From NCBI GenBank assembly GCA_037441245.1, contig JBBISM010000064.1:1-11975 (forward strand): a DNA stretch of 11,975 nucleotides. Direction: 5' to 3'. Both the position numbers and the translations under genes were made by a program. Below the pieces are notes generated by a model, which ran no database searches, was not told the origin of the DNA, and was given only the letters and a program-made list of their open reading frames with translations. Positions within the stretch are counted from its first letter, which is position 1; each line of letters begins with the position of its first letter. Of the stretch, positions 537 to 11,975 are shown piece by piece. Source of the DNA: Ignavibacteria bacterium (lineage in GTDB: Bacteria; Bacteroidota; Ignavibacteria; Kapaibacteriales; UBA2268).

Positions 537-1505
537 CTAATTCTTTTTCTTTCTTATTTTTCGAACGGTTTTCTTTTTCCGCAGTAATTGCGAAAAAGGA
601 TATACTTCAGATAATTCATAATTTTTTTCGGCGAAATGAATCAACAGGTCAGAAGTTTTTTCAATAAGCCAATTGAAGTTATGCTCTAATAAAAGCGATT
701 TGTCGGCATTTGGAGTCATATTAAGAAAATCCATCACAATAGGAATATCATCTTTAACTGCGAATTCGATAGCATTGAAATCAAATCCGAGAGCTAAACA
801 AATCTTTTTGGCAATATTTTCAATTTTTTTTGTCAATTTACTTTCAATGCTCGGTTCGTCGGGTGAATATCTTAGATGCTGTGGTTTGGTCGGGTCGTAT
901 TTCATAATTTTGACATTCTTTTGCCCGATAACATAGCATTGATAGTAGTTGTCATAGTCAATTGCCTCTTGCAATATCATAATTCTATCGATAGTAAGGT
1001 CATAAGCTGAGAAGAATTCGAGCTTATTATATACTTTAAAGGCTGTGTAAAACCCATTGATTCTGTTCGATTTTAAATAGGCTGGAAACTTAATGTATTC
1101 GAAAATTTCATCCCAATTTAATGGGAAAATTAAGTTTCTCATCGTTTCTGAGCAAGTTCCTGGGGGATGCTCTTTGCTTGGAATGATAACAGTTCTAGGA
1201 ATTTTAATTCCTAATTTGGTTGCTAATGAAGCGTGGAAAAAGTTATCGTCAGCACAAGACCAGAAGGGGTCGTTGATAACTTTTGTTCCATTCAAGGCTG
1301 ATTGTTTGAGTATAGATTTATAGAATGGTACTTCATTGGATACTCGGTCAAAAATAACATCGTATTTTAGGGGTTTATCTATTGTAACGCCGCCAACTTG
1401 AATTAGTTCTGCTTTGATTTCATTATGGCCTAAGTCGTTAATATAGTCAATTAATGCAGGGGGAAAACTTTGCTCCATACCAAAAAAAATTCCGATTGAC
1501 TTCAT
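537..1505 (-). CDS. ATP-grasp fold ligase-like protein (RimK/GshB-like), with a Lys/Arg-rich C-terminal tail
   Basis: 322-aa ORF. NDPFWSCADDNFFHASLATKLGIKIPRTVIIP resembles the ATP-grasp N-lobe segment (RimK: DK...LL...GIP.P.T). A later VMDFLNMTPNA resembles the catalytic E/D-x-N...P segment. C-terminus is LLRKKKTVRKIRKKKN. The family call is tentative, from motif resemblance only. Confidence 0.45.
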   Translation of the reverse strand: MKSIGIFFGMEQSFPPALIDYINDLGHNEIKAELIQVGGVTIDKPLKYDVIFDRVSNEVPFYKSILKQSALNGTKVINDPFWSCADDNFFHASLATKLGIKIPRTVIIPSKEHPPGTCSETMRNLIFPLNWDEIFEYIKFPAYLKSNRINGFYTAFKVYNKLEFFSAYDLTIDRIMILQEAIDYDNYYQCYVIGQKNVKIMKYDPTKPQHLRYSPDEPSIESKLTKKIENIAKKICLALGFDFNAIEFAVKDDIPIVMDFLNMTPNADKSLLLEHNFNWLIEKTSDLLIHFAEKNYELSEVYPFSQLLRKKKTVRKIRKKKN

Positions 1506-1652: not shown

Positions 1653-2315
1653 ATGAAATTAACGGAAAAATTATTAATTTCCATACAATTTTATTCAGAC
1701 GCAAAAAATATGTTTGAGATTTATTTAGCTTTTTTAGTTTTTGGCGGATTATTGTTAGCAGGTTCGCTAATATTTGGTAGTGAAAGTCATACTGATGCAG
1801 ATGTTCATAGTGGCGTTGATTTGCATATAAGCGATACTCATCCCGTAGCTGGCGAAACACATTCTATTGAACACTATGCCGAAGGGAAAGGTGTAGTAGA
1901 GGCTATCAAATTTGTATCGTTTAGAAATTTTATCTATTTCTCTACTTTTTTTGGACTGACAGGAACATTACTGACGCTATTTGAAATAGCTCTATTTTTG
2001 TCTCTACCATTATCAATATTGGTTGGTGGTATTTCTGGTTATGCTGGGTACAGATTTATGAAATACTTGAAATCGAGCGAATCAGGGGAGATTATAAGTA
2101 TGACGGATTTAGTTGGTCGAATTGCCGAGGTAACATTAAATGTATTTAATGATAAGCCAGGTAAGGTAAAAATAGAATTTGGGGGAAAGTTTGAAGAATT
2201 TATCGCAATTTTATCTGAAGAATCACAAAAAAATGAATATCTCAAAGGAGAAAAAGTTTTAGTAATTGATATAGCCAATAATAAATTAATAGTTACAGAT
2301 TTCGAAATATTATAA
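1653..2315 (+). CDS. NfeD-like membrane protein (YuaF/YqiJ type, partner of SPFH/flotillin proteins)
   Basis: 220-aa ORF with N-terminal hydrophobic helices (IYLAFLVFGGLLLAGSLIFG; LLTLFEIALFLSLPLSILVGGISGYAGY) and a soluble beta-rich C-terminal domain (GRIAEVTLNVFNDKPGKVKIEFGGKFEEF...GEKVLVIDIANNKLIV) typical of the NfeD OB-fold. Its stop overlaps the AGGGGG RBS of the downstream flotillin gene. The true start may be the internal Met 19 codons downstream (MFEIYLAF...). Confidence 0.65.
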   Translation: MKLTEKLLISIQFYSDAKNMFEIYLAFLVFGGLLLAGSLIFGSESHTDADVHSGVDLHISDTHPVAGETHSIEHYAEGKGVVEAIKFVSFRNFIYFSTFFGLTGTLLTLFEIALFLSLPLSILVGGISGYAGYRFMKYLKSSESGEIISMTDLVGRIAEVTLNVFNDKPGKVKIEFGGKFEEFIAILSEESQKNEYLKGEKVLVIDIANNKLIVTDFEIL

Positions 2316-2323
2316 GGGGGTTT

Positions 2324-3823
2324 ATGTTTGGATTCATTATTCTAATTGCATTCTTAGTAGTTATAGGAATATTTATTGTGATGTTTGCTATAACTCGACT
2401 TTTACTGATAGCACAACCAAACGAGGTAATAATATTATCAGGTCGCCGTCGCAGGCTTCCAAGTGGAGAAGTCGTCGGTTATAGAATTATACGCGGAGGC
2501 AGGGCACTTCGAATACCTTTCATCGAGAAAGCAGCACGTATGTCTCTCGAGACGATACCAATCGAACTGTCGGTTACAAATGCATATTCCAAAGGTGGAA
2601 TACCTTTGAAGGTCGAAGCGATTGCCAATATTAAGATTGATTCTACTGAACCCGCTTTCGGCAATGCTGTTGAACGATTTTTGAATATGAGGAGGGAGCA
2701 AATACATGCCATTGCCAAAGATACACTTGAAGGTAATTTAAGGGGAGTTTTAGCTTCTTTAACACCAGAAGAAGTCAATGAAGATAGATTGAAATTTGCA
2801 GAAGTCTTGATTGATGAAGCTGTAGGCGATCTGAATCAATTAGGTTTGAGGTTAGATATATTGAAAATAACGAATATCTCCGACGAACGAGGCTACCTTG
2901 ATTCGATTGGAAGAATGAAAACTGCTGAATTGCTTGCAAATGCAAAAAAAGTCGAAGCTGAGAAAAAAGCAGAGGCAGAGGAAGCAGAAGCATTAAGCGA
3001 GGAAAGAGCTCAAAAGGCACGCTCGAGAGCTCATCAAGAAATTGAAACTGCTCGTATCAATTCCGAGCAAAATGTATTAATAATAAACGCTAATAAAGAA
3101 GCGGAAACAAAAGAAGCTGAAGCAAATGCTCTCGCTCGTGCAGAAAGAGTAAAAGCTCAATCCAATCAGGATATCAACATTGCCCAAATTGTAGCTCAGC
3201 AGAATGTTAAAATTACCGATACAAAAGCTCAACAGGCTATAGAAATTGAACGGAACAATCTCAGAATCAAGAAAGCTGAATTAGAAAAAGATGCTGTAAT
3301 AAAAGAAAAAGAAGCCGAAGTTGCTGGTAAGAAAGCACAAGTGGTTTTTGAGCAAACACTAGAAGAAGAACGGGTTAAATTGCAGCAAAAGAAATTACTG
3401 GCTGATGTTATCGAGCCAGCAAAAGCAAAAAAAGAAGCTATGGAATTGGAAGCAAAAGGTCATGCCGCATCAATTTTTGCTGATGGCGAGGCAAAAAGAG
3501 CTGTACTCGACCAAATGATTGCTGTTTATAATGCCGCTAAAGGAACGGGCGAAAAAGTCTATATGCTGAATATTTTACCTCAAATTGTTGATTCAATTGT
3601 CAGTACAATCAAACAAATTAAGATTGATAAGTTGACTGTGGTTGATACAGCTGGAATCGCTTCCGATGGTGGCTTAACGAAATTAGTAAATCAATTTCCT
3701 GGATTAGTGACCTCAATAACCGAAATGCTCGAAAATACAACTGGCGTTGACATTTTCAGTCATTTTAAAAAACAGAATACAAGCAAATCAGACGAAGCAG
3801 CAGAACAGTCAAATCAGGAATAA
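2324..3823 (+). CDS. Flotillin-like SPFH/Band-7 protein (FloT/YqiK family)
   Basis: 499 aa. N-terminal TM anchor MFGFIILIAFLVVIGIFIVMFAI, then an SPFH domain (RALRIPFIEKAARMSLETIPIELSVTNAYSKGGIPLKVEAIANIKID), a long Glu/Ala-rich coiled coil (KKVEAEKKAEAEEAEALSEERAQKARSRAHQE...) and a flotillin-type C-terminal region. RBS AGGGGG at 2315-2320, 4 nt before the ATG. Confidence 0.85.
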   Translation: MFGFIILIAFLVVIGIFIVMFAITRLLLIAQPNEVIILSGRRRRLPSGEVVGYRIIRGGRALRIPFIEKAARMSLETIPIELSVTNAYSKGGIPLKVEAIANIKIDSTEPAFGNAVERFLNMRREQIHAIAKDTLEGNLRGVLASLTPEEVNEDRLKFAEVLIDEAVGDLNQLGLRLDILKITNISDERGYLDSIGRMKTAELLANAKKVEAEKKAEAEEAEALSEERAQKARSRAHQEIETARINSEQNVLIINANKEAETKEAEANALARAERVKAQSNQDINIAQIVAQQNVKITDTKAQQAIEIERNNLRIKKAELEKDAVIKEKEAEVAGKKAQVVFEQTLEEERVKLQQKKLLADVIEPAKAKKEAMELEAKGHAASIFADGEAKRAVLDQMIAVYNAAKGTGEKVYMLNILPQIVDSIVSTIKQIKIDKLTVVDTAGIASDGGLTKLVNQFPGLVTSITEMLENTTGVDIFSHFKKQNTSKSDEAAEQSNQE

Positions 3824-4230: not shown

Positions 4231-5454
4231 ATGGCAGTAAAATTAATCAGCCCACACGGAAGCCCAGAATTAATCGAATTGTTACCGAAAGGCGAAGAAT
4301 TAACCCAAGAAAAGAAAAGAGCAGAAAAGATGCTCAAAGTTAATATCACCAGCCGAGAAACCGGGGATTTAATAATGATGGGTATTGGAGGATTTACACC
4401 ACTTACTGGATTTATGGGTTATAATGATTGGAAAAGCGTTTGTTCAGAGATGAAAATGCAGAGCAAAAACGGTCTCTTCTGGCCTATCCCAGTAACAGTA
4501 TCTTGCGACAAAGAAACAGCCGATAGAATTAATATCGGCGATGAAGTCGCTCTTTATTCAGATGAGTACGACGAGATTATGGCAACAATGAAAGTTGAAG
4601 AAAAGTACAAAATTGACAAAGAATTCGAATGCAAACATGTTTATAAAACTGTGGATATGGAGCATCCAGGCGTTATAATGGTAATGGAGCAAGCTGAATA
4701 CAATTTAGCTGGTCCAGTCAAAGTTTTATCGGAAGCTACATTTCCAGTCGAGTTCAAAGATGTTTATCAAAGACCATCAGAGTCGAGAAAAATATTTGCC
4801 GAGAAAGGATGGCGAACAATCGCGGCATTACAGTTACGAAATCCTATGCATAGGAGTCATGAATATTTAGCCAAAATAGCGCTCGAAGTATCCGATGGGT
4901 TATATATTCATCAATTAGTAGGAAAATTAAAACCAGGCGATATTCCCGCTGATGTACGTGTCAGATGTATTGATGTCCTGGTAGAAAGATATTTCGTAAA
5001 GGATACTGTAATTCAAGGTGGTTATCCATTGGATATGAGATATGCTGGACCGAGGGAAGCTCTTTTGCACGCACTTTTCAGACAGAATTTTGGATGCACA
5101 CATATGATTATTGGTCGCGATCACGCAGGAGTCGGTAATTATTATGGTGCATTTGAAGCCCAAGATATTTTCGATGAATTATGGGATGGAGCGCTACTAT
5201 GCAAACCATTGAAAATTGATTGGACATTCTGGTGCAGCAAATGCGAAGGAATGGCTTCAATGAAAACCTGCCCGCATACAAAAGACGACAGACTATTATT
5301 GAGCGGTACTATGTTGAGGAAATCCTTATCCGAGGGAAAAGAAGTTCCCAAAGAATTCAGCCGACCAGAAGTTTTAGAAATTTTGCGAGAATATTACACC
5401 GGTTTAACAGAAAAAGTAGAAGTAAAGTTGCATAAAGCTGCAACAGGCGAGTAG
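4231..5454 (+). CDS. sat: Sulfate adenylyltransferase (ATP sulfurylase), dissimilatory type
   Basis: 407 aa. Contains the canonical ATP-sulfurylase motifs [13 protein letters not shown] (QxRNxxHxxHE) and GRDHAGVG, and the overall length and organisation fit. RBS GGAG is 6 nt upstream of the ATG. Confidence 0.95.
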
Positions 5455-5529: not shown

Positions 5530-5970
5530 ATGCCAAGTTTTGTAATTGTAGAAAAGTGTGACGGATGCAAGGCACTTGATAAGACAGCCTGCCAGTACAT
5601 TTGCCCTAATGATCTTATGGTTTTGAACAAAGATCTTATGAAAGCCTACAACATTGAACCAGAAATGTGCTGGGAATGTTACAATTGCGTAAAAATATGC
5701 CCCACACAAGCCATTGAAGTTCGTGGATATGCAGATTTTGTTCCTATGGGAGCGCAAGTAACTCCGATGAGGAGCTCTGACTCAATTATGTGGACAGTTA
5801 AATTCCGCAATGGAACGCTCAAACGATTTAAATTCCCCATCAGATCAACCCCAGAAGGAACAGCAGTGCCCGACGGTGGATGGGAAACCCCAAATGATGA
5901 TTTATCAAGCCCATATTTATTTACTGAACCAGCATCACTTAAATTAGATGATTTGTGGAAAAAACAATAA
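5530..5970 (+). CDS. aprB: Adenylylsulfate (APS) reductase beta subunit, two [4Fe-4S] clusters
   Basis: 146 aa. MPSFVIVEKCDGCK...CQYICPNDLM...CWECYNCVKICPTQAI...MWTVKFRNGTLKRFKFPIRSTPEG is near-identical in pattern to known AprB N-termini and the C-terminal tail. RBS AAGGAG at 5517-5522. Confidence 0.95.
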   Translation: MPSFVIVEKCDGCKALDKTACQYICPNDLMVLNKDLMKAYNIEPEMCWECYNCVKICPTQAIEVRGYADFVPMGAQVTPMRSSDSIMWTVKFRNGTLKRFKFPIRSTPEGTAVPDGGWETPNDDLSSPYLFTEPASLKLDDLWKKQ

Positions 5971-6014: not shown

Positions 6015-7889
6015 ATGGCAAATTTTGAAACTGTAGAAGTCAATACCGATCTATTGATTATTGGTGGCGGTATGTCTGCTTGCGGTGCAGCTGTCGAAGC
6101 CGTTTACTGGGCAAAAAAGCATAATGTTAAAGTTACTTTGGTTGATAAAGCAGCCGTTGACCGTTCAGGTGCTGTTGCTATGGGTTTATCAGCGATTAAT
6201 CAATATGTTGACCTTACAAGCGGTAATAATACTGTAAAAGACTATGTAGATTATGTTCGAAATGACTTGATGGGTATTACCCGCGAGGATTTAGTTGCGA
6301 ACATAGCTCGCCACGTTGATTCATCAGTTCATCTTTTTGAAAAATGGGGATTGCCAATTTGGAAAGATGAAGAAGGAAACTATGTGCACGAAGGTCGCTG
6401 GCAATTAATGATTAATGGAGAATCATACAAAGTTGTCGTAGCAGAAGCTGCTAAGAATGCTCTCGGTATAGATAATATAATCGAGCGTGTATTTGTTGTC
6501 GAGCCATTGCTTGATGGTGATAAGGTTTCGGGCGCAGTAGGATTCAGTGTTAGAGAGAATAAATTTTATGTATTCAAAGCAAAAGCAGTAATTATTGCAG
6601 CTGGTGGGGCGGTTCACGTATTCAAACCACGTTCATCAGGCGAAGGCTTGGGCCGTGCCTGGTATCCACCGTGGAATTCAGGAACAAGTGCTTACTTCAC
6701 TATCAAAGCAGGAGCTGAAATGACCTGCCAAGAAGTAAGATTCATTCCTGTTAGATTCAAAGATGCTTATGGACCTGTTGGTGCTTGGTTCTTATTATTT
6801 AAATCACGCGCAACATCTGCTCTCGGTGGCGAATATATGGTCGAAAGAAAAGGAGAGCTTGAGAATTGGTTACCTTATGGGAAAGTCAAACCAATTCCAG
6901 CAAATCTTCGCAACTGGCTTGGAATGATGGACGTTATGGAAGGCAAGGGACCGATTTATATGAGAACTGAGGAAGCTATCCAAAAATTGGCTGATGCATA
7001 TAAAGATGACCCAAAGGGATACAAGAAAAAAATGAAAGAACTCGAAGAGGAAGCTTGGGAAGACTTTTTGGATATGACTATCTCGCAAGCAATATTATGG
7101 GCAGCAACTAACATATTCCCCGAAGAACGTGCATCGGAAATAGCAGCAGCCGAACCATACTTTATCGGCTCGCACTCAGGTGCATCTGGTGCTTGGGTTT
7201 CGGGTCCGAAAGATCTTGCACCGCAGGAATATTTCTGGGGATATGCGAATATGACAACAGTAAAAGGATTATTCGCAGTAGGCGATGCTTCTGGCGCATC
7301 AAGTCATAAGTTTTCATCGGGTTCGCACGCCGAAGGTCGTATTGCAGCCAAAGCAGCAATTGAATATATTGTAAAAGAGAATCCGACGCATAAATATATT
7401 GATGCCGAGATTAATGCATTGAAGGAAAAAATTCTTAAGCCACTAGATATTTATGAGCAATACTATAAGGAAACAACTGATCCAGACATCAACCCAAATT
7501 ATATTCGACCGAAGATGTTTATGTTCAGACTGCAAAAAATTATGGACGAATATGCTGGTGGAGTATCATCACAGTTCAAGACAAACAAGCCCTTATTAGA
7601 AAAAGGACTTGAGCTACTTGCATTCCTTAAAGAAGACTCAGAACTTTTAGCAGCAGCCGATTTGCATGAACTAATGAGATGCTGGGAGAATGTCCATAGA
7701 ATGTGGCAAGCAGAAGCACACGTTCGCACTATTCTTTTCAGAGAAGAAACTCGTTGGCCTGGGTATTACTTCAGGGCAGATACACCGAAGATAGACAATG
7801 ACAAATGGGAGAAATTTGTAAATCTTACTTACGACAAGAATACTGATAAGTGGGATGTATTTACAAAAGACATTCTCCACATATTTTAA
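6015..7889 (+). CDS. aprA: Adenylylsulfate (APS) reductase alpha subunit, FAD flavoprotein
   Basis: 624 aa. N-terminal FAD-binding fold DLLIIGGGMSACGAAVEA. Fumarate-reductase/succinate-dehydrogenase-like flavoprotein architecture immediately downstream of aprB. RBS GGAG at 6004-6007. Confidence 0.95.
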   Translation: MANFETVEVNTDLLIIGGGMSACGAAVEAVYWAKKHNVKVTLVDKAAVDRSGAVAMGLSAINQYVDLTSGNNTVKDYVDYVRNDLMGITREDLVANIARHVDSSVHLFEKWGLPIWKDEEGNYVHEGRWQLMINGESYKVVVAEAAKNALGIDNIIERVFVVEPLLDGDKVSGAVGFSVRENKFYVFKAKAVIIAAGGAVHVFKPRSSGEGLGRAWYPPWNSGTSAYFTIKAGAEMTCQEVRFIPVRFKDAYGPVGAWFLLFKSRATSALGGEYMVERKGELENWLPYGKVKPIPANLRNWLGMMDVMEGKGPIYMRTEEAIQKLADAYKDDPKGYKKKMKELEEEAWEDFLDMTISQAILWAATNIFPEERASEIAAAEPYFIGSHSGASGAWVSGPKDLAPQEYFWGYANMTTVKGLFAVGDASGASSHKFSSGSHAEGRIAAKAAIEYIVKENPTHKYIDAEINALKEKILKPLDIYEQYYKETTDPDINPNYIRPKMFMFRLQKIMDEYAGGVSSQFKTNKPLLEKGLELLAFLKEDSELLAAADLHELMRCWENVHRMWQAEAHVRTILFREETRWPGYYFRADTPKIDNDKWEKFVNLTYDKNTDKWDVFTKDILHIF

Positions 7890-7897
7890 TTCCAAAA

Positions 7898-7932
7898 GGC
7901 ACCTGTGGATACAACCACAGGTGCCATTTTTA
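7898..7932 (+). terminator. Strong Rho-independent terminator downstream of aprA
   Basis: Perfect GC-rich 11-bp stem GGCACCTGTGG (7898-7908) / CCACAGGTGCC (7915-7925), 6-nt loop ATACAA, then ATTTTT (7926-7932). Begins 9 nt after the aprA stop codon. Confidence 0.8.
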
Positions 7933-7995
7933 AATATAAAATTTAGAGGCAAAAAGTGCAATTGAGTTTTGTATTTAATTATGAAAGGATAATAA

Positions 7996-8256
7996 ATGGA
8001 AAAAATACATTGCAAATACTGCGGTTCAGAAATGCAAAGAATAAATTTACCCCAGGATACAGATTTTAATTGCGAATATTTATATGTATGCTTCAATGAT
8101 GAATGCGGATACTATGTCCGAGGATGGGAATGGATGCGAACTAACTATAATGTTACAGCATCTTATAGGTATAAGTATAATCCATTTTTTGGTGATGACG
8201 GACCAATACCCGTATCATCACCATATACTTGGAAAGATATGATAGCAAAAACTTAG
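7996..8256 (+). CDS. Small Cys-containing zinc-ribbon-like protein (hypothetical)
   Basis: 86 aa. The Cys pairs CKYCGSEM (CxxC) and CFNDEC (CxxxxC) lie ~22 residues apart, suggesting a Zn ribbon or rubredoxin-like knuckle. RBS AAAGGA before the ATG. First gene after the aprA terminator, followed by the next gene after 18 bp. Confidence 0.5.
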   Translation: MEKIHCKYCGSEMQRINLPQDTDFNCEYLYVCFNDECGYYVRGWEWMRTNYNVTASYRYKYNPFFGDDGPIPVSSPYTWKDMIAKT

Positions 8257-8274
8257 TTATCAAAAGGTTAAACG

Positions 8275-9069
8275 ATGAATAATATTGATAAAATTAACAA
8301 AACAATTATAAAAGAATATCCGAGATTAGACGAGGATGCAAAATTCGATTTCAAGTGCCATAGCGGATTAAGCTGTTTCAACAAGTGCTGTAACGATGTT
8401 AATATTTTCTTGACACCTTATGATATCATTAGATTGAAAAATAGGTTGGGAATAAGCTCGAGCGAGTTTTTAGAAAAATATACGATAATTCCTATCGAAG
8501 AAAATTTAAAGCATCCAATAGTTATATTGAAAATGAACAGCGAAACATTAGATTGCCCCTTGTTAAGTATAGATGGTTGCACTGTGTATGTTGATAGGCC
8601 TTGGTCTTGCAGGATGTATCCACTTGGAATGGCTTCACCTTCGGAAAGCATAAGCAACGAACAAGAAGAATTTTACTTTTTATTGAAAGAACCCATTTGC
8701 CAGGGATTCACTGAAAATAAAGAATGGACTATCTTGGAATGGAAAGATAATCAAGGTGTCAATGAATATACCGAATTGGGCGAGATGTTTAAAGAAATTT
8801 CTTGCAATGACCACTTTGTGAAAGGCAAAATCACCGAGCCGGTCAAATTGGAAATGTTTTATATGGTTTGCTACGATATTGATAAGTTTAGGGAATTTCT
8901 CTATAGGAGCTCTTTTTTCAAGCGATTTGCAGTAGAAGATGAATTAATTAATAAGATGAGAACAGATGATGTCGAATTATTAACATTCGGCTTCAAATGG
9001 CTTAAATATAGCTTATTTGGAGAGCCAACCCTTAATTTGAAACAAGAATATATGAAACCTATTTTATAG
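8275..9069 (+). CDS. YkgJ/UPF0153-family protein (Pfam 'CxxCxxCC' putative Fe/Zn-chelating domain)
   Basis: 264 aa. N-terminal Cys cluster FKCHSGLSCFNKCCNDV. Central CPLLSIDGCTVYVDRPWSCRMYP matches the family signature C-x7-C-x-Y-x2-RP-x2-CR-x-YP. Variant spacing in the first cluster (C-x5-C-x3-CC). Confidence 0.6.
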   Translation: MNNIDKINKTIIKEYPRLDEDAKFDFKCHSGLSCFNKCCNDVNIFLTPYDIIRLKNRLGISSSEFLEKYTIIPIEENLKHPIVILKMNSETLDCPLLSIDGCTVYVDRPWSCRMYPLGMASPSESISNEQEEFYFLLKEPICQGFTENKEWTILEWKDNQGVNEYTELGEMFKEISCNDHFVKGKITEPVKLEMFYMVCYDIDKFREFLYRSSFFKRFAVEDELINKMRTDDVELLTFGFKWLKYSLFGEPTLNLKQEYMKPIL

Positions 9070-9107
9070 TTCAATTGGAGTATAGTGAATAATTAGAAGG
9101 AAATAAG

Positions 9108-10376
9108 TTGAACAACGGGAAACAATTAAATAGTGATATTGAATTCATTCGCCACTTAAAAAAGTATGGTGGCGATACAATGAAAAAATGCTTTCAATGT
9201 GCTACCTGCTCGGTAGTTTGTTCGCTATCACCCGTAGAAAATGCATTTCCCAGAAAAGAAATGATAAAAGCAGGATGGGGATTGAAAAATGAACTGGTTA
9301 ATGATCCAGATATTTGGCTTTGCCATGGATGTATGGATTGCAGTCAGATGTGCCCGCGTGGAGCAAGACCAGCTGATCTAATGGGCGCTATAAGAAGCTA
9401 CATCTATCGTTTTTATTCTACTCCGAAATTTATGGGGAAAGCACTATCGGAACCAAAATATTTACCTTATTTATTGATACTACCGACAATATTAATATTC
9501 ATATTGCTATTAGTAACTCAAGGGGGAAATCTATCTGCTATTGATTGGTCTGTTCATCAGTTTAAGTATAAAGATTTTATAGCTCACGGACCAATTGAGG
9601 TTCTTTTCATTTTTGGAAATATACTAGTATTTGCATTCGCATATATAGGGTTCAAAAGATATTGGGATGACTTACATCAACATAATAATTATCAACCAGT
9701 TCAGGGTTTAATTCCATCATTCATTCAAGTAATAAAAGAACTTGCCTTGCACAAAAAATTTGATAAATGCCCAACAAATTCAGCACGTTATTATGGGCAT
9801 TTATTTATTTTTTATGGATTTGTAGGAGCTTTGATAGCCACAGCTATAGTTGTAGCAAATATATTTGGGGATAAGCTTGGCTTATTCAATGAATTTTTGC
9901 CAGAGCATATGAATATGCCACTATATTTATTGGGGGGCGTGAACTTCGATGACCCAAATGAAGTGATTGAATTGATTGGGCTTATAGTGAAAAGCTTTGG
10001 TTTATTGGCAGGAACATTACTGGTTATCGGTGGGTTGTTATTGTTAGTTAAACGGCAAGTTACCGAAGACCGAGAAGGGAAATCCACCTATTATGATATG
10101 CTATTTTTGTGGATTCTTTGGGGAGTGTCGTTTACTGGAATGTGCTGTGTATTTCTTCGACTGCTTGAAGTACCAATTATTGCTTATCCAACGTATTTCG
10201 TGCATTTAGTATTAGTATATTGCTTGCTTTGGTATATGCCTTATTCAAAATTTGCACATATGATATATAGATTTATGGGATTAACCTATTTGAAGATGTA
10301 TGGTAGGGATGCAAAGATTGAAATTTTCGATAAAAACTTAAAAATAAATAAAGTTACACAACAAGTAACAGTATAG
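9108..10376 (+). CDS. QmoC-like protein: an HdrC-like 2x[4Fe-4S] domain fused to an HdrE/NarI-like di-heme cytochrome b membrane domain
   Basis: The ORF track starts at TTG 9108, preceded by AAGGA at 9097-9101. An in-frame ATG at 9180 is an alternative start. Two ferredoxin motifs with the long HdrC-type spacer: [12 protein letters not shown] ... ~33 aa ... [12 protein letters not shown]. About six predicted TM helices follow ([109 protein letters not shown]). Conserved His residues (AHGP, YYGHLF, FVHLV, FAHMIY) are positioned like heme-b ligands. No CCG motif, so not DsrK/HdrD. Confidence 0.6.
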
Positions 10377-10404
10377 AAATTCTAAACTTATTACAGGAGT
10401 AGAA

Positions 10405-11607
10405 ATGGTAAATAGAAAATTTGAAACTCCATTACTCGACCAGCTTGAGAGCGGAGAGTGGCCAAGTTTCGTTACAGAAATTAAAATGGCTGCTGAAACT
10501 AACCAAATGGCAAATAGTTTACTCGGTTTGCTCGAGCAATCATACGAGGAAAAAATTGGTCACTGGAAGCATGGAGGGATTGTAGGTGTTATGGGATATG
10601 GTGGGGGTGTCATTGGTAGATATACAGACTTACCCGAGAAATATCCTGATATTTCGCATTTCCATACGATGAGAATTAACCAACCAGCAGGTTGGTTCTA
10701 CACAGCTGAAGCCTTGAAGCAAATATGTGATGTTTGGGACCGATATGGCTCGGGATTAACAAATATGCACGGTTCGACGGGAGATATTATATTGCTAGGA
10801 ACAAGAACAGAAAATTTAGAACCAACATTCAATGAGCTAACGCATTTAGGATTTGATTTGGGGGGGTCGGGCTCTGCAGTTCGCACTCCTAGCTGTTGCT
10901 GCGGAATGGCAAGATGCGAATGGGCTTGCTATGATACAATGGCTTTGACATATTATATAACAATGCGTTATCAAGATGAACTACATAGGCCAGCATTCCC
11001 TTATAAGATGAAATTTAAAATGTCGGGTTGCCCAAATGATTGTGTAGCATCGGTCGCAAGAGCAGATATATCAATCATTGGTACCTGGCGAGATGAAATT
11101 CAAATCAATCAGGAGGAAGTAAAGAAGTATCAAGATAATGGGACAAATATTTTTAAAGAAGTTGTATTGAACTGCCCAGCTAAATGTATTGATTGGGATG
11201 GCAATGAGATTAAGATAGACAATTCGAATTGTCGCCATTGTATGCATTGTATTAATGTATTACCTAAAGCATTAGCACCTGGAAAGGATAGAGGAGCAGC
11301 GATACTTATCGGCTCGAAAGCCCCAATTATCGAGGGCGCATTGTTATCATCAGTATTTGTACCATTCATCGAAATCGAAGAACCCTATGATGATTTAGAG
11401 CTATGGGAATTAATTGACAATATGTTCGACTTATGGTGCGAAGAAGGTAAGAACCGAGAAAGAATAGGCGAATTTATTCAAAGAGTAGGATTGGGCAATT
11501 TCATTGAAGCAGTCGGATTGCCACCGATGCCAGAAATGATTGCATTCCCGAGAGAAAATCCGTATATCTTCTACGAAAGCTTTTTCGAAGAAGAAGTGGA
11601 AGAATAA
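10405..11607 (+). CDS. dsrA: Dissimilatory sulfite reductase alpha subunit
   Basis: 400 aa. N-terminus ...[19 protein letters not shown] and internal [35 protein letters not shown], siroheme/[4Fe-4S] Cys cluster [32 protein letters not shown], and ferredoxin insert [28 protein letters not shown] are collinear with characterised DsrA proteins. RBS AGGAG at 10395-10399. Only 28 bp after the preceding gene. Confidence 0.95.
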
Positions 11608-11656: not shown

Positions 11657-11975
11657 ATGTCAGATCAAGCACCAGAGAGATTAACTGATATTGGCCCACC
11701 GCATTACACAAAATATTTGCCACCAATTATTAAAGAGAATTACGGTCAATGGAAATATCACGAAATACCGAAACCAGGCGTTTTGGTTCATACAGCTGAA
11801 TCGGGGGCTAAATTGTATTCAGTTAGAGCAGCAAGTCCAAGATTATTAAGCACTAATAAAATCAGAATGTTCGCTGAATTAGCTGAAAAATATTGCGATG
11901 GATATTTACGCTTTACTTCACGAAACAATGTAGAATTTTTATTGACAGATCCCAACAATATTGACCCATTGATAG
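11657..11975 (+). CDS. dsrB: Dissimilatory sulfite reductase beta subunit (first 106 aa; continues beyond the right window edge)
   Basis: Open frame from ATG 11657 (RBS AAGGA 11643-11647): MSDQAPERLTDIGPPHYTKYLPPIIKENYGQWKYHEIPKPGVLVHTAESGAKLYSVRAASPRLLSTNKIRMFAELAEKYCDGYLRFTSRNNVEFLL. Matches the conserved DsrB N-terminal region (DIGP...WKYHEI.PGVL.H.AESG...RFT.R.N.EF). Confidence 0.9.
   Translation, partial: MSDQAPERLTDIGPPHYTKYLPPIIKENYGQWKYHEIPKPGVLVHTAESGAKLYSVRAASPRLLSTNKIRMFAELAEKYCDGYLRFTSRNNVEFLLTDPNNIDPLI

Follow-up and report, generated by a model that had tools for sequence, protein, structure and literature searches.

A conserved gene pair for a zinc-finger and a YkgJ-type cysteine-rich protein accompanies aprBA and qmo genes in Kapabacteria and several other bacterial lineages

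The stretch of DNA considered here (the window) comprises 11,975 nucleotides of contig JBBISM010000064.1 from the Ignavibacteria bacterium assembly GCA_037441245.1. The region belongs to a single long gene cluster for dissimilatory sulfate reduction in an uncultured Kapabacterium (Bacteroidota). Between the genes for adenosine 5'-phosphosulfate (APS) reductase, aprBA, and those for dissimilatory sulfite reductase, dsrAB, lie three genes on the plus strand: an open reading frame (ORF) of 86 amino acids (aa) at 7996-8256, here named X, for a zinc-finger protein; an ORF of 264 aa at 8275-9069, here named Y, for a YkgJ-type, putative Fe-S protein; and an ORF of 422 aa with a TTG start at 9108-10376, which is qmoC. 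The intergenic gaps are 18 bp between X and Y, 38 bp between Y and qmoC, and 28 bp between qmoC and dsrA. X and Y are a fixed pair, often translationally coupled, and their constant neighbor across phyla is aprBA, usually together with qmo genes.

The cluster begins with sat (sulfate adenylyltransferase, 4231-5454, plus strand; NCBIfam NF003166, 515 bits; Pfam ATP-sulfurylase and PUA_2), followed on the same strand by aprB (APS reductase beta subunit, 5530-5970; TIGR02060, 202.5 bits; Pfam APS-reductase_C) and aprA (alpha subunit, 6015-7889; TIGR02061, 912.8 bits). Downstream of qmoC, again on the plus strand, come dsrA (sulfite reductase alpha subunit, 10405-11607; TIGR02064, 554.8 bits) and the 5' part of dsrB (11657-11975, from the gene table of the source contig), which is truncated by the end of the window. 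The scores for sat, aprB, aprA, and dsrA far exceed the NCBIfam equivalog cutoffs. On the 20.6-kb source contig (L001, whose coordinates are those of the window + 241; such handles denote loci and contigs throughout), the genes continue beyond the window as dsrB-dsrD-dsrN-145aa-dsrL-dsrC-dsrM-dsrK. An exact-sequence match identifies this contig as CAYMAD010000043.1 of MAG GCA_964388315.1. The order of the whole cluster is sat-aprBA-X-Y-qmoC-dsrAB-dsrD-dsrN-145aa-dsrL-dsrC-dsrMK, with the DsrMK genes a few kb 3' of the window. No gene for an HdrA-like QmoA or QmoB was found in the window or on the 20.6-kb source contig. The GC content is about 30-44%. Among the species-level genomes of the collection, the nearest is that of a 'Candidatus Kapabacteria' metagenome-assembled genome (MAG; L024), with Y 79-80% and AprA 95% identical.

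X matches the Pfam zinc-finger family PF04606 (Ogr_Delta) at 34.2 bits, over a cutoff of 26.3, and 27 of 27 aligned members match the same family at E<=0.01, although the orthologs in L090 and L091 score below its gathering score. The four Cys, spaced C6-x2-C9-x22-C32-x4-C37, are all invariant, and they are followed by an aromatic-rich tail with further invariant residues (Y39, G43, W44, W46, M47, S56, Y57, R58, G69, and P70) that the 47-position Pfam model leaves uncovered. The protein is soluble and acidic, with an isoelectric point (pI) of 5.2 and without a transmembrane segment. The X homologs found 3' of aprA in L090, L091, and L092 match the X profile with E-values of 1e-41 to 1e-44, whereas a tblastn search of 50,697 phage records and a comparison of the X profile with PDB sequences returned no relative. 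DVU0851, the extra gene 3' of qmoC in the qmo operon of D. vulgaris, was considered as an X homolog and is treated as unrelated; it is reported to have no homologs outside Desulfovibrio.

Y matches Pfam PF03692 (CxxCxxCC) at 35.9 bits, with a cutoff of 23, over residues 28-127. Its Cys are arranged as C28-x5-C34-x3-C38C39 plus C94, C102, C112, and C142, so that the motif is CX5CX3CC rather than a literal CxxCxxCC, and all eight are kept in at least 106 of 110 representatives. Like X, Y is soluble and acidic (pI 5.0), and it has a helical C-terminal domain. The family holds 154 clusters at 50% identity (E<=1e-30), with full-length members down to about 29% identity. A structure model built from a 148-sequence alignment is confident (predicted local distance difference test, 87.4; predicted template modeling score, 0.84) and gave no structural match to HdrB or DsrK; similarly, Pfam found no CCG domain (PF02754), no NCBIfam family was matched, and the Y profile found nothing among PDB sequences. 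Y belongs to a separate subfamily, about 265 aa long and with a C-terminal helical domain of its own, within a sizeable family that is without a solved fold. The only biochemically studied protein with a Y-like motif turned up by the searches is FliB, a flagellin methyltransferase with a CX4CX3CC motif and eight conserved Cys that binds one oxygen-sensitive [4Fe-4S] cluster, and it is by this analogy that Y is regarded as a putative Fe-S protein.

The 422-aa gene is an ordinary qmoC, whose product joins an HdrC-like domain, bearing two [4Fe-4S] motifs, to a cytochrome b domain of roughly six transmembrane segments. It matches the NCBIfam equivalog NF038018 at 397.2 bits, over a cutoff of 300, with residues 10-394 aligned to positions 2-360 of 360, and residues 7-97 match the HdrC chain 8rvv_C (E 1.4e-16). 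Every Cys of the two N-terminal CxxCxxCxxxC motifs (C28/31/34/38 and C72/75/78/82) is invariant, with 68-69 of 69 orthologs retaining it. In the membrane part, which has about six hydrophobic segments and where two hemes b would call for four His ligands, H231, H366, and H384 are the only invariant His; 41 of the 69 orthologs retain H160 and 48 retain H215, counts that alignment uncertainty may affect. A ninth invariant Cys, C221, lies just before the third hydrophobic segment in all 69. These features predict that QmoC is the quinol-interacting membrane subunit of Qmo, a complex for which a search of the PDB copy returned no structure.

Much of this agrees with an initial annotation of the window that was made from the sequence alone. 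The three plus-strand ORFs and their spacing re-read exactly as it gave them, its calls of a zinc ribbon and of QmoC architecture are borne out by the family matches above, and the absence of QmoA and QmoB extends from the window to the source contig. The gene set is indeed non-canonical for this position, and its synteny is strongly conserved. The YkgJ assignment of Y likewise stands, with the Cys signature corrected as given above. Missing from that account were dsrM and dsrK downstream on the same contig, and a hairpin after aprA that is described below.

A scan with the Y profile of one genome per GTDB species identified a relative in at least 554 genomes, and the best 80 loci, from genomes named as Kapabacteria, Ignavibacteria, Zixibacteria, and Kryptonia, were retrieved; the count for each feature takes only loci with enough flanking DNA. 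X lies directly 5' of Y in all 77 informative loci, and in all but three the spacer is <=60 bp or the ORFs overlap (some of the large overlaps reflect over-extended ORF calls). Upstream on the same strand, aprA is present in 62 of 66 loci. A qmoC-family gene follows Y immediately in 48 of 72 and occurs somewhere in the locus in 66 of 80, while qmoA together with qmoB is found in 23 of 80 and dsrA, within 10 kb, in 20 of 80. A neighbor-joining tree places all apr-linked Y proteins in one clade.

Within this clade, several gene orders are seen. The operon of 23 Ignavibacteria and Kryptonia loci runs qmoA-qmoB-sat-aprB-aprA-(hppA)-X-Y-qmoC; both its QmoA (420 aa) and its QmoB (750 aa) have HdrA-like flavin adenine dinucleotide (FAD) and Fe-S domains, to which QmoB adds a FlpD/MvhD domain at its C-terminus. 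Close relatives of the 750-aa protein are labeled QmoB by the Joint Genome Institute (JGI), and a protein-database search with the Ignavibacteria QmoB listed 120 matches, all of Ignavibacteria type at >=74% identity. In Kapabacteria and Zixibacteria, qmoC is set apart from qmoAB; the Zixibacteria have qmoC 5' of sat and on the opposite strand. A complete, 5.46-Mb Kapabacteria chromosome carries sat-aprBA-X-Y-qmoC-dsrAB-dsrD-dsrN-145aa-dsrL-dsrC, and 'Bacteroidetes/Chlorobi group bacterium Naka2016' has the same order from sat to dsrC, followed by dsrMK. Farther afield, an Armatimonadetes-type contig (L090) and an unassigned high-GC metagenome contig (L092) both read sat-aprBA-X-Y-qmoA-qmoB-qmoC; an Elusimicrobiota MAG (L091) has sat-aprBA-X-Y adjoining dsrC and dsrMKJOP-like genes; and L093 has sat-aprBA-X-Y-dsrAB. 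The order of apr followed by X-Y holds in all of the extra contigs of the apr-linked clade that were sampled (L002, L003/L004, L090, L091, L092, and L093). Two loci, the Zixibacteria MAG L055 and the ENA (European Nucleotide Archive) contig L093, have dsrA directly after Y with no qmoC between (about 9800-11050), showing that the place of qmoC after Y is not fixed even where dsrAB follows.

These neighborhoods bear on two roles that the initial annotation had proposed for the three-gene module. Since X-Y shares an operon with qmoAB in 23 of the 80 loci, and with a full qmoABC in L090 and L092, the pair adds to QmoAB and does not replace it; and the constancy of aprBA as partner, with dsrA within 10 kb in so few loci, argues against a DsrK-like role. 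The expected anticorrelation of the module with qmoAB and dsrMK across genomes was likewise not found, and dsrMK follows in Kapabacteria loci.

A second, independent arrangement was revealed by a metagenome scan with another clade of Y proteins (paralog B), which yielded 80 contigs; the named members of this clade are Desulfobacterota. In the Y tree, two further clades, which occur as tandem paralogs, hold the proteins named from Desulfobacteraceae, Desulfobacca, Thermodesulfobacteriota, and 'Deltaproteobacteria', and in 56 of 58 informative paralog-B contigs a second Y paralog indeed lies directly 5'. An X homolog, 40-50% identical to that of the window, is present 1-3 kb 3' on the opposite strand in 16 of 31 informative contigs, and qmoB lies farther 3' in nine of 19. 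Specifically, six contigs (L109, L128-L130, L142, and L161) carry sat-aprB-aprA-qmoA-qmoB-qmoC-X-(SEC-C motif protein), convergent with the tandem Y paralogs (Y'-Y''), a layout confirmed by Pfam on L129; its qmoA-qmoB-qmoC-X part is visible on L137 and L159, and on L087 and L146 the tandem paralogs are convergent with qmoAB-hdrCB. Roughly half of the paralog-B contigs are without apr or qmo within reach, so that the apr/qmo link there is frequent but not obligatory. The joining of X and Y to apr/qmo by two different gene orders, in distantly related lineages, is much stronger evidence of a functional link than a single conserved operon could be. Between genomes of the Fibrobacteres-Chlorobi-Bacteroidetes (FCB) group and the paralog-B contigs, X is 40-50% identical and QmoC 25-27%; this greater conservation of X across phyla fits a constrained protein-protein interface.

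Two other genes were noted around these paralogs. At the operon end, the SEC-C protein that follows X has 250-254 aa and an N-terminal zinc-binding motif (L129, 4233-4997, minus strand; L161, 4055-4807, minus strand). In a Deltaproteobacteria lineage of the RBG_13_43_22 type, which has no apr or qmo within 8-10 kb, the tandem Y paralogs are preceded by a gene for a different, 82-aa Cys-rich protein (L088, 6730-6978; L089, 6710-6958; also in L094, L097, L100, and L108), and a comparison with the X profile indicated that this protein, in L088 and L089, is not an X homolog.

With respect to expression, a hairpin with a perfect 11-bp stem (eight GC pairs) and a T-rich tail occupies 7898-7925 of the plus strand, 9 nt after the aprA stop, with a predicted free energy (dG) of -21.8 kcal/mol. 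The best hairpin in the aprA-X spacer is comparable in 32 of 32 loci examined among L001-L074 (dG -16 to -30 kcal/mol, calculated without a shuffle control) and differs in sequence among them; it starts 2-53 nt past the aprA stop in 29 of the 32, and farther 3' in L046, L009, and L012. The element is probably a partial terminator or an mRNA 3'-stabilizing element that keeps the expression of aprBA above that of the downstream genes, with sat-aprBA transcripts outnumbering those of X-Y-qmoC, and its position suggests that X, Y, and qmoC are produced at a lower, Qmo-like level than AprBA. At the qmoC/dsrA junction no terminator-like site was found, as the initial annotation had noted, and an Rfam scan of the window found no RNA family. 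A scan for sigma-70 promoters did no better than shuffled sequence and is uninformative here; Bacteroidota promoters differ.

The arrangement seen in the window is already in the literature, as is qmoC. Thiel et al. 2019 (PMC6338057) described the layout 'sat-aprBA-hyp-hyp-qmoC-dsrAB' in 'Ca. Thermonerobacter thiotrophicus', where qmoA and qmoB lie side by side at another site in the genome and the dsrTMKJOP set is complete. In Table S2 of that paper, both hypotheticals fall within a transcribed 'DSR cluster' and qmoAB lies on another contig; one of the two is annotated 'Predicted Fe-S-cluster oxidoreductase' (COG0727), and the Kapabacteria carry terminal oxidases. The sulfate-reduction genes were assigned to the night-time, low-oxygen k-means clusters D and E (PMC6338057), and X, Y, qmoC, aprA, dsrA, and qmoB appear to stand together on one sheet (one k-means cluster) of Table S1, as judged from a single alphabetical run of its entries. 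The two genes were left as unnamed hypotheticals and were not traced beyond the four genomes of that study (PMC6338057). The initial annotation had held that a YkgJ-family protein in a Qmo/Dsr-like complex was undescribed: apart from the 'two conserved hypothetical genes' of Thiel et al., the searchable literature contained no YkgJ-family protein tied to Apr or Qmo, and searches on YkgJ with apr, on qmoD, and on COG0727 found nothing relevant. What was not found there is that the two 'hypotheticals' constitute a widespread apr/qmo-linked pair in several phyla, with a second arrangement in the clade of Desulfobacterota-named proteins, and that one member of the pair has a fold lacking a solved representative.

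Taken together, these observations lead us to favor, tentatively and without calling it probable, the reading that a soluble Zn/Fe-S heterodimer of X and Y acts together with AprBA-Qmo, either as a further relay or entry point for electrons or as a coupling factor. In such a scheme, QmoC would oxidize menaquinol, and electrons would pass from its hemes b, through the two [4Fe-4S] clusters, to a QmoAB encoded elsewhere in this lineage, then to AprB, and finally to AprA. Y, by analogy with FliB, would hold one or two Fe-S clusters on its eight Cys, and the X-Y heterodimer would dock on the Apr-Qmo assembly, where it would either relay or admit electrons or act as a factor for redox-dependent coupling or assembly; X, Y, and QmoC would be made at the lower, Qmo-like level that the hairpin suggests. 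QmoABC binds AprBA (Ramos et al. 2012), and the reading fits the placement of X-Y between the genes of these two mutually binding complexes, the Cys content of Y, sufficient for Fe-S clusters, and the stronger conservation of X than of QmoC across phyla. Moreover, electron transfer from quinol through Qmo to Apr has not been reconstituted, and a 'third partner' was proposed (Ramos 2012), which is likewise consistent with an accessory role.

Several points weigh against this reading. The metal content of X and Y, the interaction between them, and their binding to Apr or Qmo are all points that we infer; the qmoAB of this MAG, for which one 20.6-kb contig was read, are taken from relatives. The experimentally studied Apr-Qmo system, that of Desulfovibrio, is not seen to carry X-Y, so the pair cannot be a universal requirement. 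A few Y-family loci (L075, L082, L088, and L089), together with roughly half of those of paralog B, have neither apr nor qmo genes within reach. Finally, X matches a family of phage transcription activators, which points to regulation over electron transfer.

A bolder form of the same idea, which we consider distinctly unlikely, is that X-Y is the long-sought 'third partner' of AprBA-QmoABC, a soluble Zn/Fe-S heterodimer that brings in or gates a second, lower-potential electron and thereby makes menaquinol-dependent APS reduction feasible by confurcation. If true, the third partner would be encoded beside apr/qmo in Kapabacteria, Ignavibacteria, Zixibacteria, Kryptonia, and the Armatimonadetes- and Elusimicrobiota-type contigs, and would be found rearranged in the Desulfobacterota-affiliated clade. 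In that event the pair would bear directly on how APS reductase is reduced, a prospect that we rate as low. Electron supply to APS reductase is one of the unresolved steps of sulfate respiration, and X-Y, which stands beside aprBA/qmo in more than 60 species-level genomes of several phyla and in a second arrangement, provides a concrete candidate.

The match of X to Ogr/Delta proteins gives rise to an alternative that we regard as unlikely, namely a regulatory pair, in which X would be an Ogr/Delta-type activator under the oxygen- or redox-sensing Fe-S control of Y, turning on apr, qmo, and dsr under anoxia in largely facultative lineages. Its appeal lies in the score of X over the gathering threshold with the same C-x2-C-x22-C-x4-C spacing, in the oxygen sensitivity of the cluster that FliB binds on a similar Cys motif, and in the transcription of these genes in situ at night, when oxygen is low; the position of X near the operon end in paralog-B contigs, with only the SEC-C motif gene after it, and the lower expression of X and Y implied by the hairpin would also suit a regulator. 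On the other hand, the Ogr_Delta scores are modest, with L090 and L091 under the gathering score; no phage relative was found by tblastn, the context of X is a respiratory operon in all loci, and its invariant aromatic tail lies outside the Ogr_Delta model. Many loci have a histidine kinase and a response regulator of their own, it is rare for regulators to be embedded, with translational coupling, among the genes for the subunits of two interacting enzymes across several phyla, and X is better conserved across phyla than QmoC.

The pair could also be a maturation, repair, or protection factor for AprBA/Qmo, acting outside the steady-state electron path in the insertion or repair of Fe-S clusters or as a shield against oxygen or sulfite. 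This seems doubtful to us, although the tight and specific linkage to aprBA is what such a factor would display, as are Cys-rich, soluble, and acidic proteins with an expression probably below that of aprBA. X-Y is, moreover, found mostly in lineages that also respire oxygen (the Kapabacteria, as noted, have terminal oxidases), and the strictly anaerobic model organism works without it. In Pfam and NCBIfam, however, neither X nor Y resembles any known family of Fe-S assembly proteins or chaperones, and we know of no dedicated maturation factor for APS reductase. The frequent location of the pair directly before qmoA or qmoC fits a role on the Qmo side equally well.

Lastly, it is very improbable that, as the initial annotation had it, X, Y, and QmoC take the place of QmoAB as a minimal menaquinol:acceptor oxidoreductase feeding AprB, or serve as a DsrK analogue acting on DsrC trisulfide, an idea that the 20.6-kb contig without qmoA or qmoB, the 38-bp gap placing Y just ahead of qmoC, and the HdrC-like N-terminal domain of QmoC (HdrC normally pairs with a Cys-rich subunit, HdrB) do favor, but that is largely refuted by co-occurrence: 23 loci have X-Y in one operon with qmoA and qmoB, L090 and L092 have it with a complete qmoABC, related Kapabacteria with the same operon have and transcribe qmoAB, dsrMK is on the same contig, most X-Y loci are without dsr genes nearby, qmoC is divergent from the operon in Zixibacteria and absent between Y and dsrA in L055 and L093, and Y has neither a CCG domain nor a fold match to HdrB or DsrK. 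An ordinary QmoC with dsrMK on the same contig, and with qmoAB and dsrTMKJOP present elsewhere and co-transcribed in the closest described relatives, is essentially the situation that the initial annotation had named as counting against itself.

The surroundings of the cluster hold several further conserved genes. Upstream of sat in the window are a 322-aa ORF without a Pfam family (537-1505, minus strand), a weak NfeD-like membrane protein (1653-2315, plus strand), and a 499-aa SPFH/flotillin protein (2324-3823, plus strand), and the same three genes precede sat in L024. Between dsrN and dsrL (L001, 14770-15207), a 145-aa protein without a Pfam match, the 'hyp' of the dsrN-hyp-dsrL of Thiel et al., is kept at that position in 15 loci with 56-86% identity and represents a further uncharacterized conserved member of the dsr cluster. 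In eight Ignavibacteria loci (L029, L031, L035, L040, L042, L051, L071, and L081; about 7500-9670 in each), hppA, for a 706-aa ion-translocating membrane pyrophosphatase, is inserted between aprA and X, which fits the removal of the pyrophosphate made by Sat. Near qmoAB-sat-aprBA-X-Y-qmoC clusters without dsr nearby, recurrent genes include those for TauE/SafE-type anion exporters, in up to three copies (one of them, in L090, fused to a multiheme cytochrome), a PF13189 cytidylate-kinase-like protein, an 880-aa protein resembling phosphoenolpyruvate (PEP) synthase and PPDK_N, a histidine kinase with a response regulator, and a DVU0150-family protein (L020, 12126-20520; L031, 12012-19862; L067, 1828-3822; L090, 15074-18849); this set suggests a sulfite- or APS-centered module in genomes that possibly lack Dsr. 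Cluster c46, 5' of sat in L009 and L015, was considered as a divergent qmoAB and proved to be a pair of proteins secreted by the type IX secretion system (T9SS). Eight loci titled 'uncultured Hyphomicrobiales bacterium' (L005, L008, L010, L011, L014, L026, L030, and L033) contain a Kapabacteria-type cluster, with Y 60-67% and AprA 83-88% identical, and are evidently mislabeled.

Should the role of X-Y prove to lie in regulation or maturation, the pair would still serve as a useful marker for, and a new component of, the Apr/Qmo module in the recently discovered non-classical sulfate reducers. Its relation to known systems can be set out as follows. The closest described counterpart is 'Ca. Thermonerobacter thiotrophicus' (PMC6338057), in which the gene order is identical and the two 'hyp' genes are X and Y; the window derives from a different, low-GC Kapabacteria MAG, and its Y shares about 59-61% identity with the homologs from Nakabusa and Mushroom Spring. 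X shares with the Ogr/Delta phage late-gene activators its zinc-finger spacing and a Pfam score over the cutoff, but differs from them in sitting in a respiratory operon without phage context and in having an extra conserved, Trp/Tyr-rich tail. Y resembles the YkgJ/UPF0153 proteins (PF03692), including FliB, in its N-terminal Cys cluster, eight conserved Cys, and solubility; unlike FliB, it occurs with apr/qmo and not with flagella, and shows no sign of S-adenosylmethionine (SAM) chemistry. Y also recalls the CCG-domain subunits HdrB and DsrK as a Cys-rich, soluble protein adjoining an HdrC-like domain, that of the QmoC N-terminus, yet it has neither the PF02754 CCG motifs nor the HdrB-like fold of HdrB, DsrK, and HdrD. 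Finally, as in the QmoABC and AprBA of Desulfovibrio and the sat-aprBA-qmoABC of green sulfur bacteria, an equivalog-level QmoC follows aprBA here, and the QmoA and QmoB of the window's relatives are typical HdrA-like proteins, with a FlpD/MvhD domain added in QmoB; in contrast to the described three-subunit Qmo, X and Y are extra genes between aprA and the qmo gene(s), and their products stand outside the complex as it has been described.

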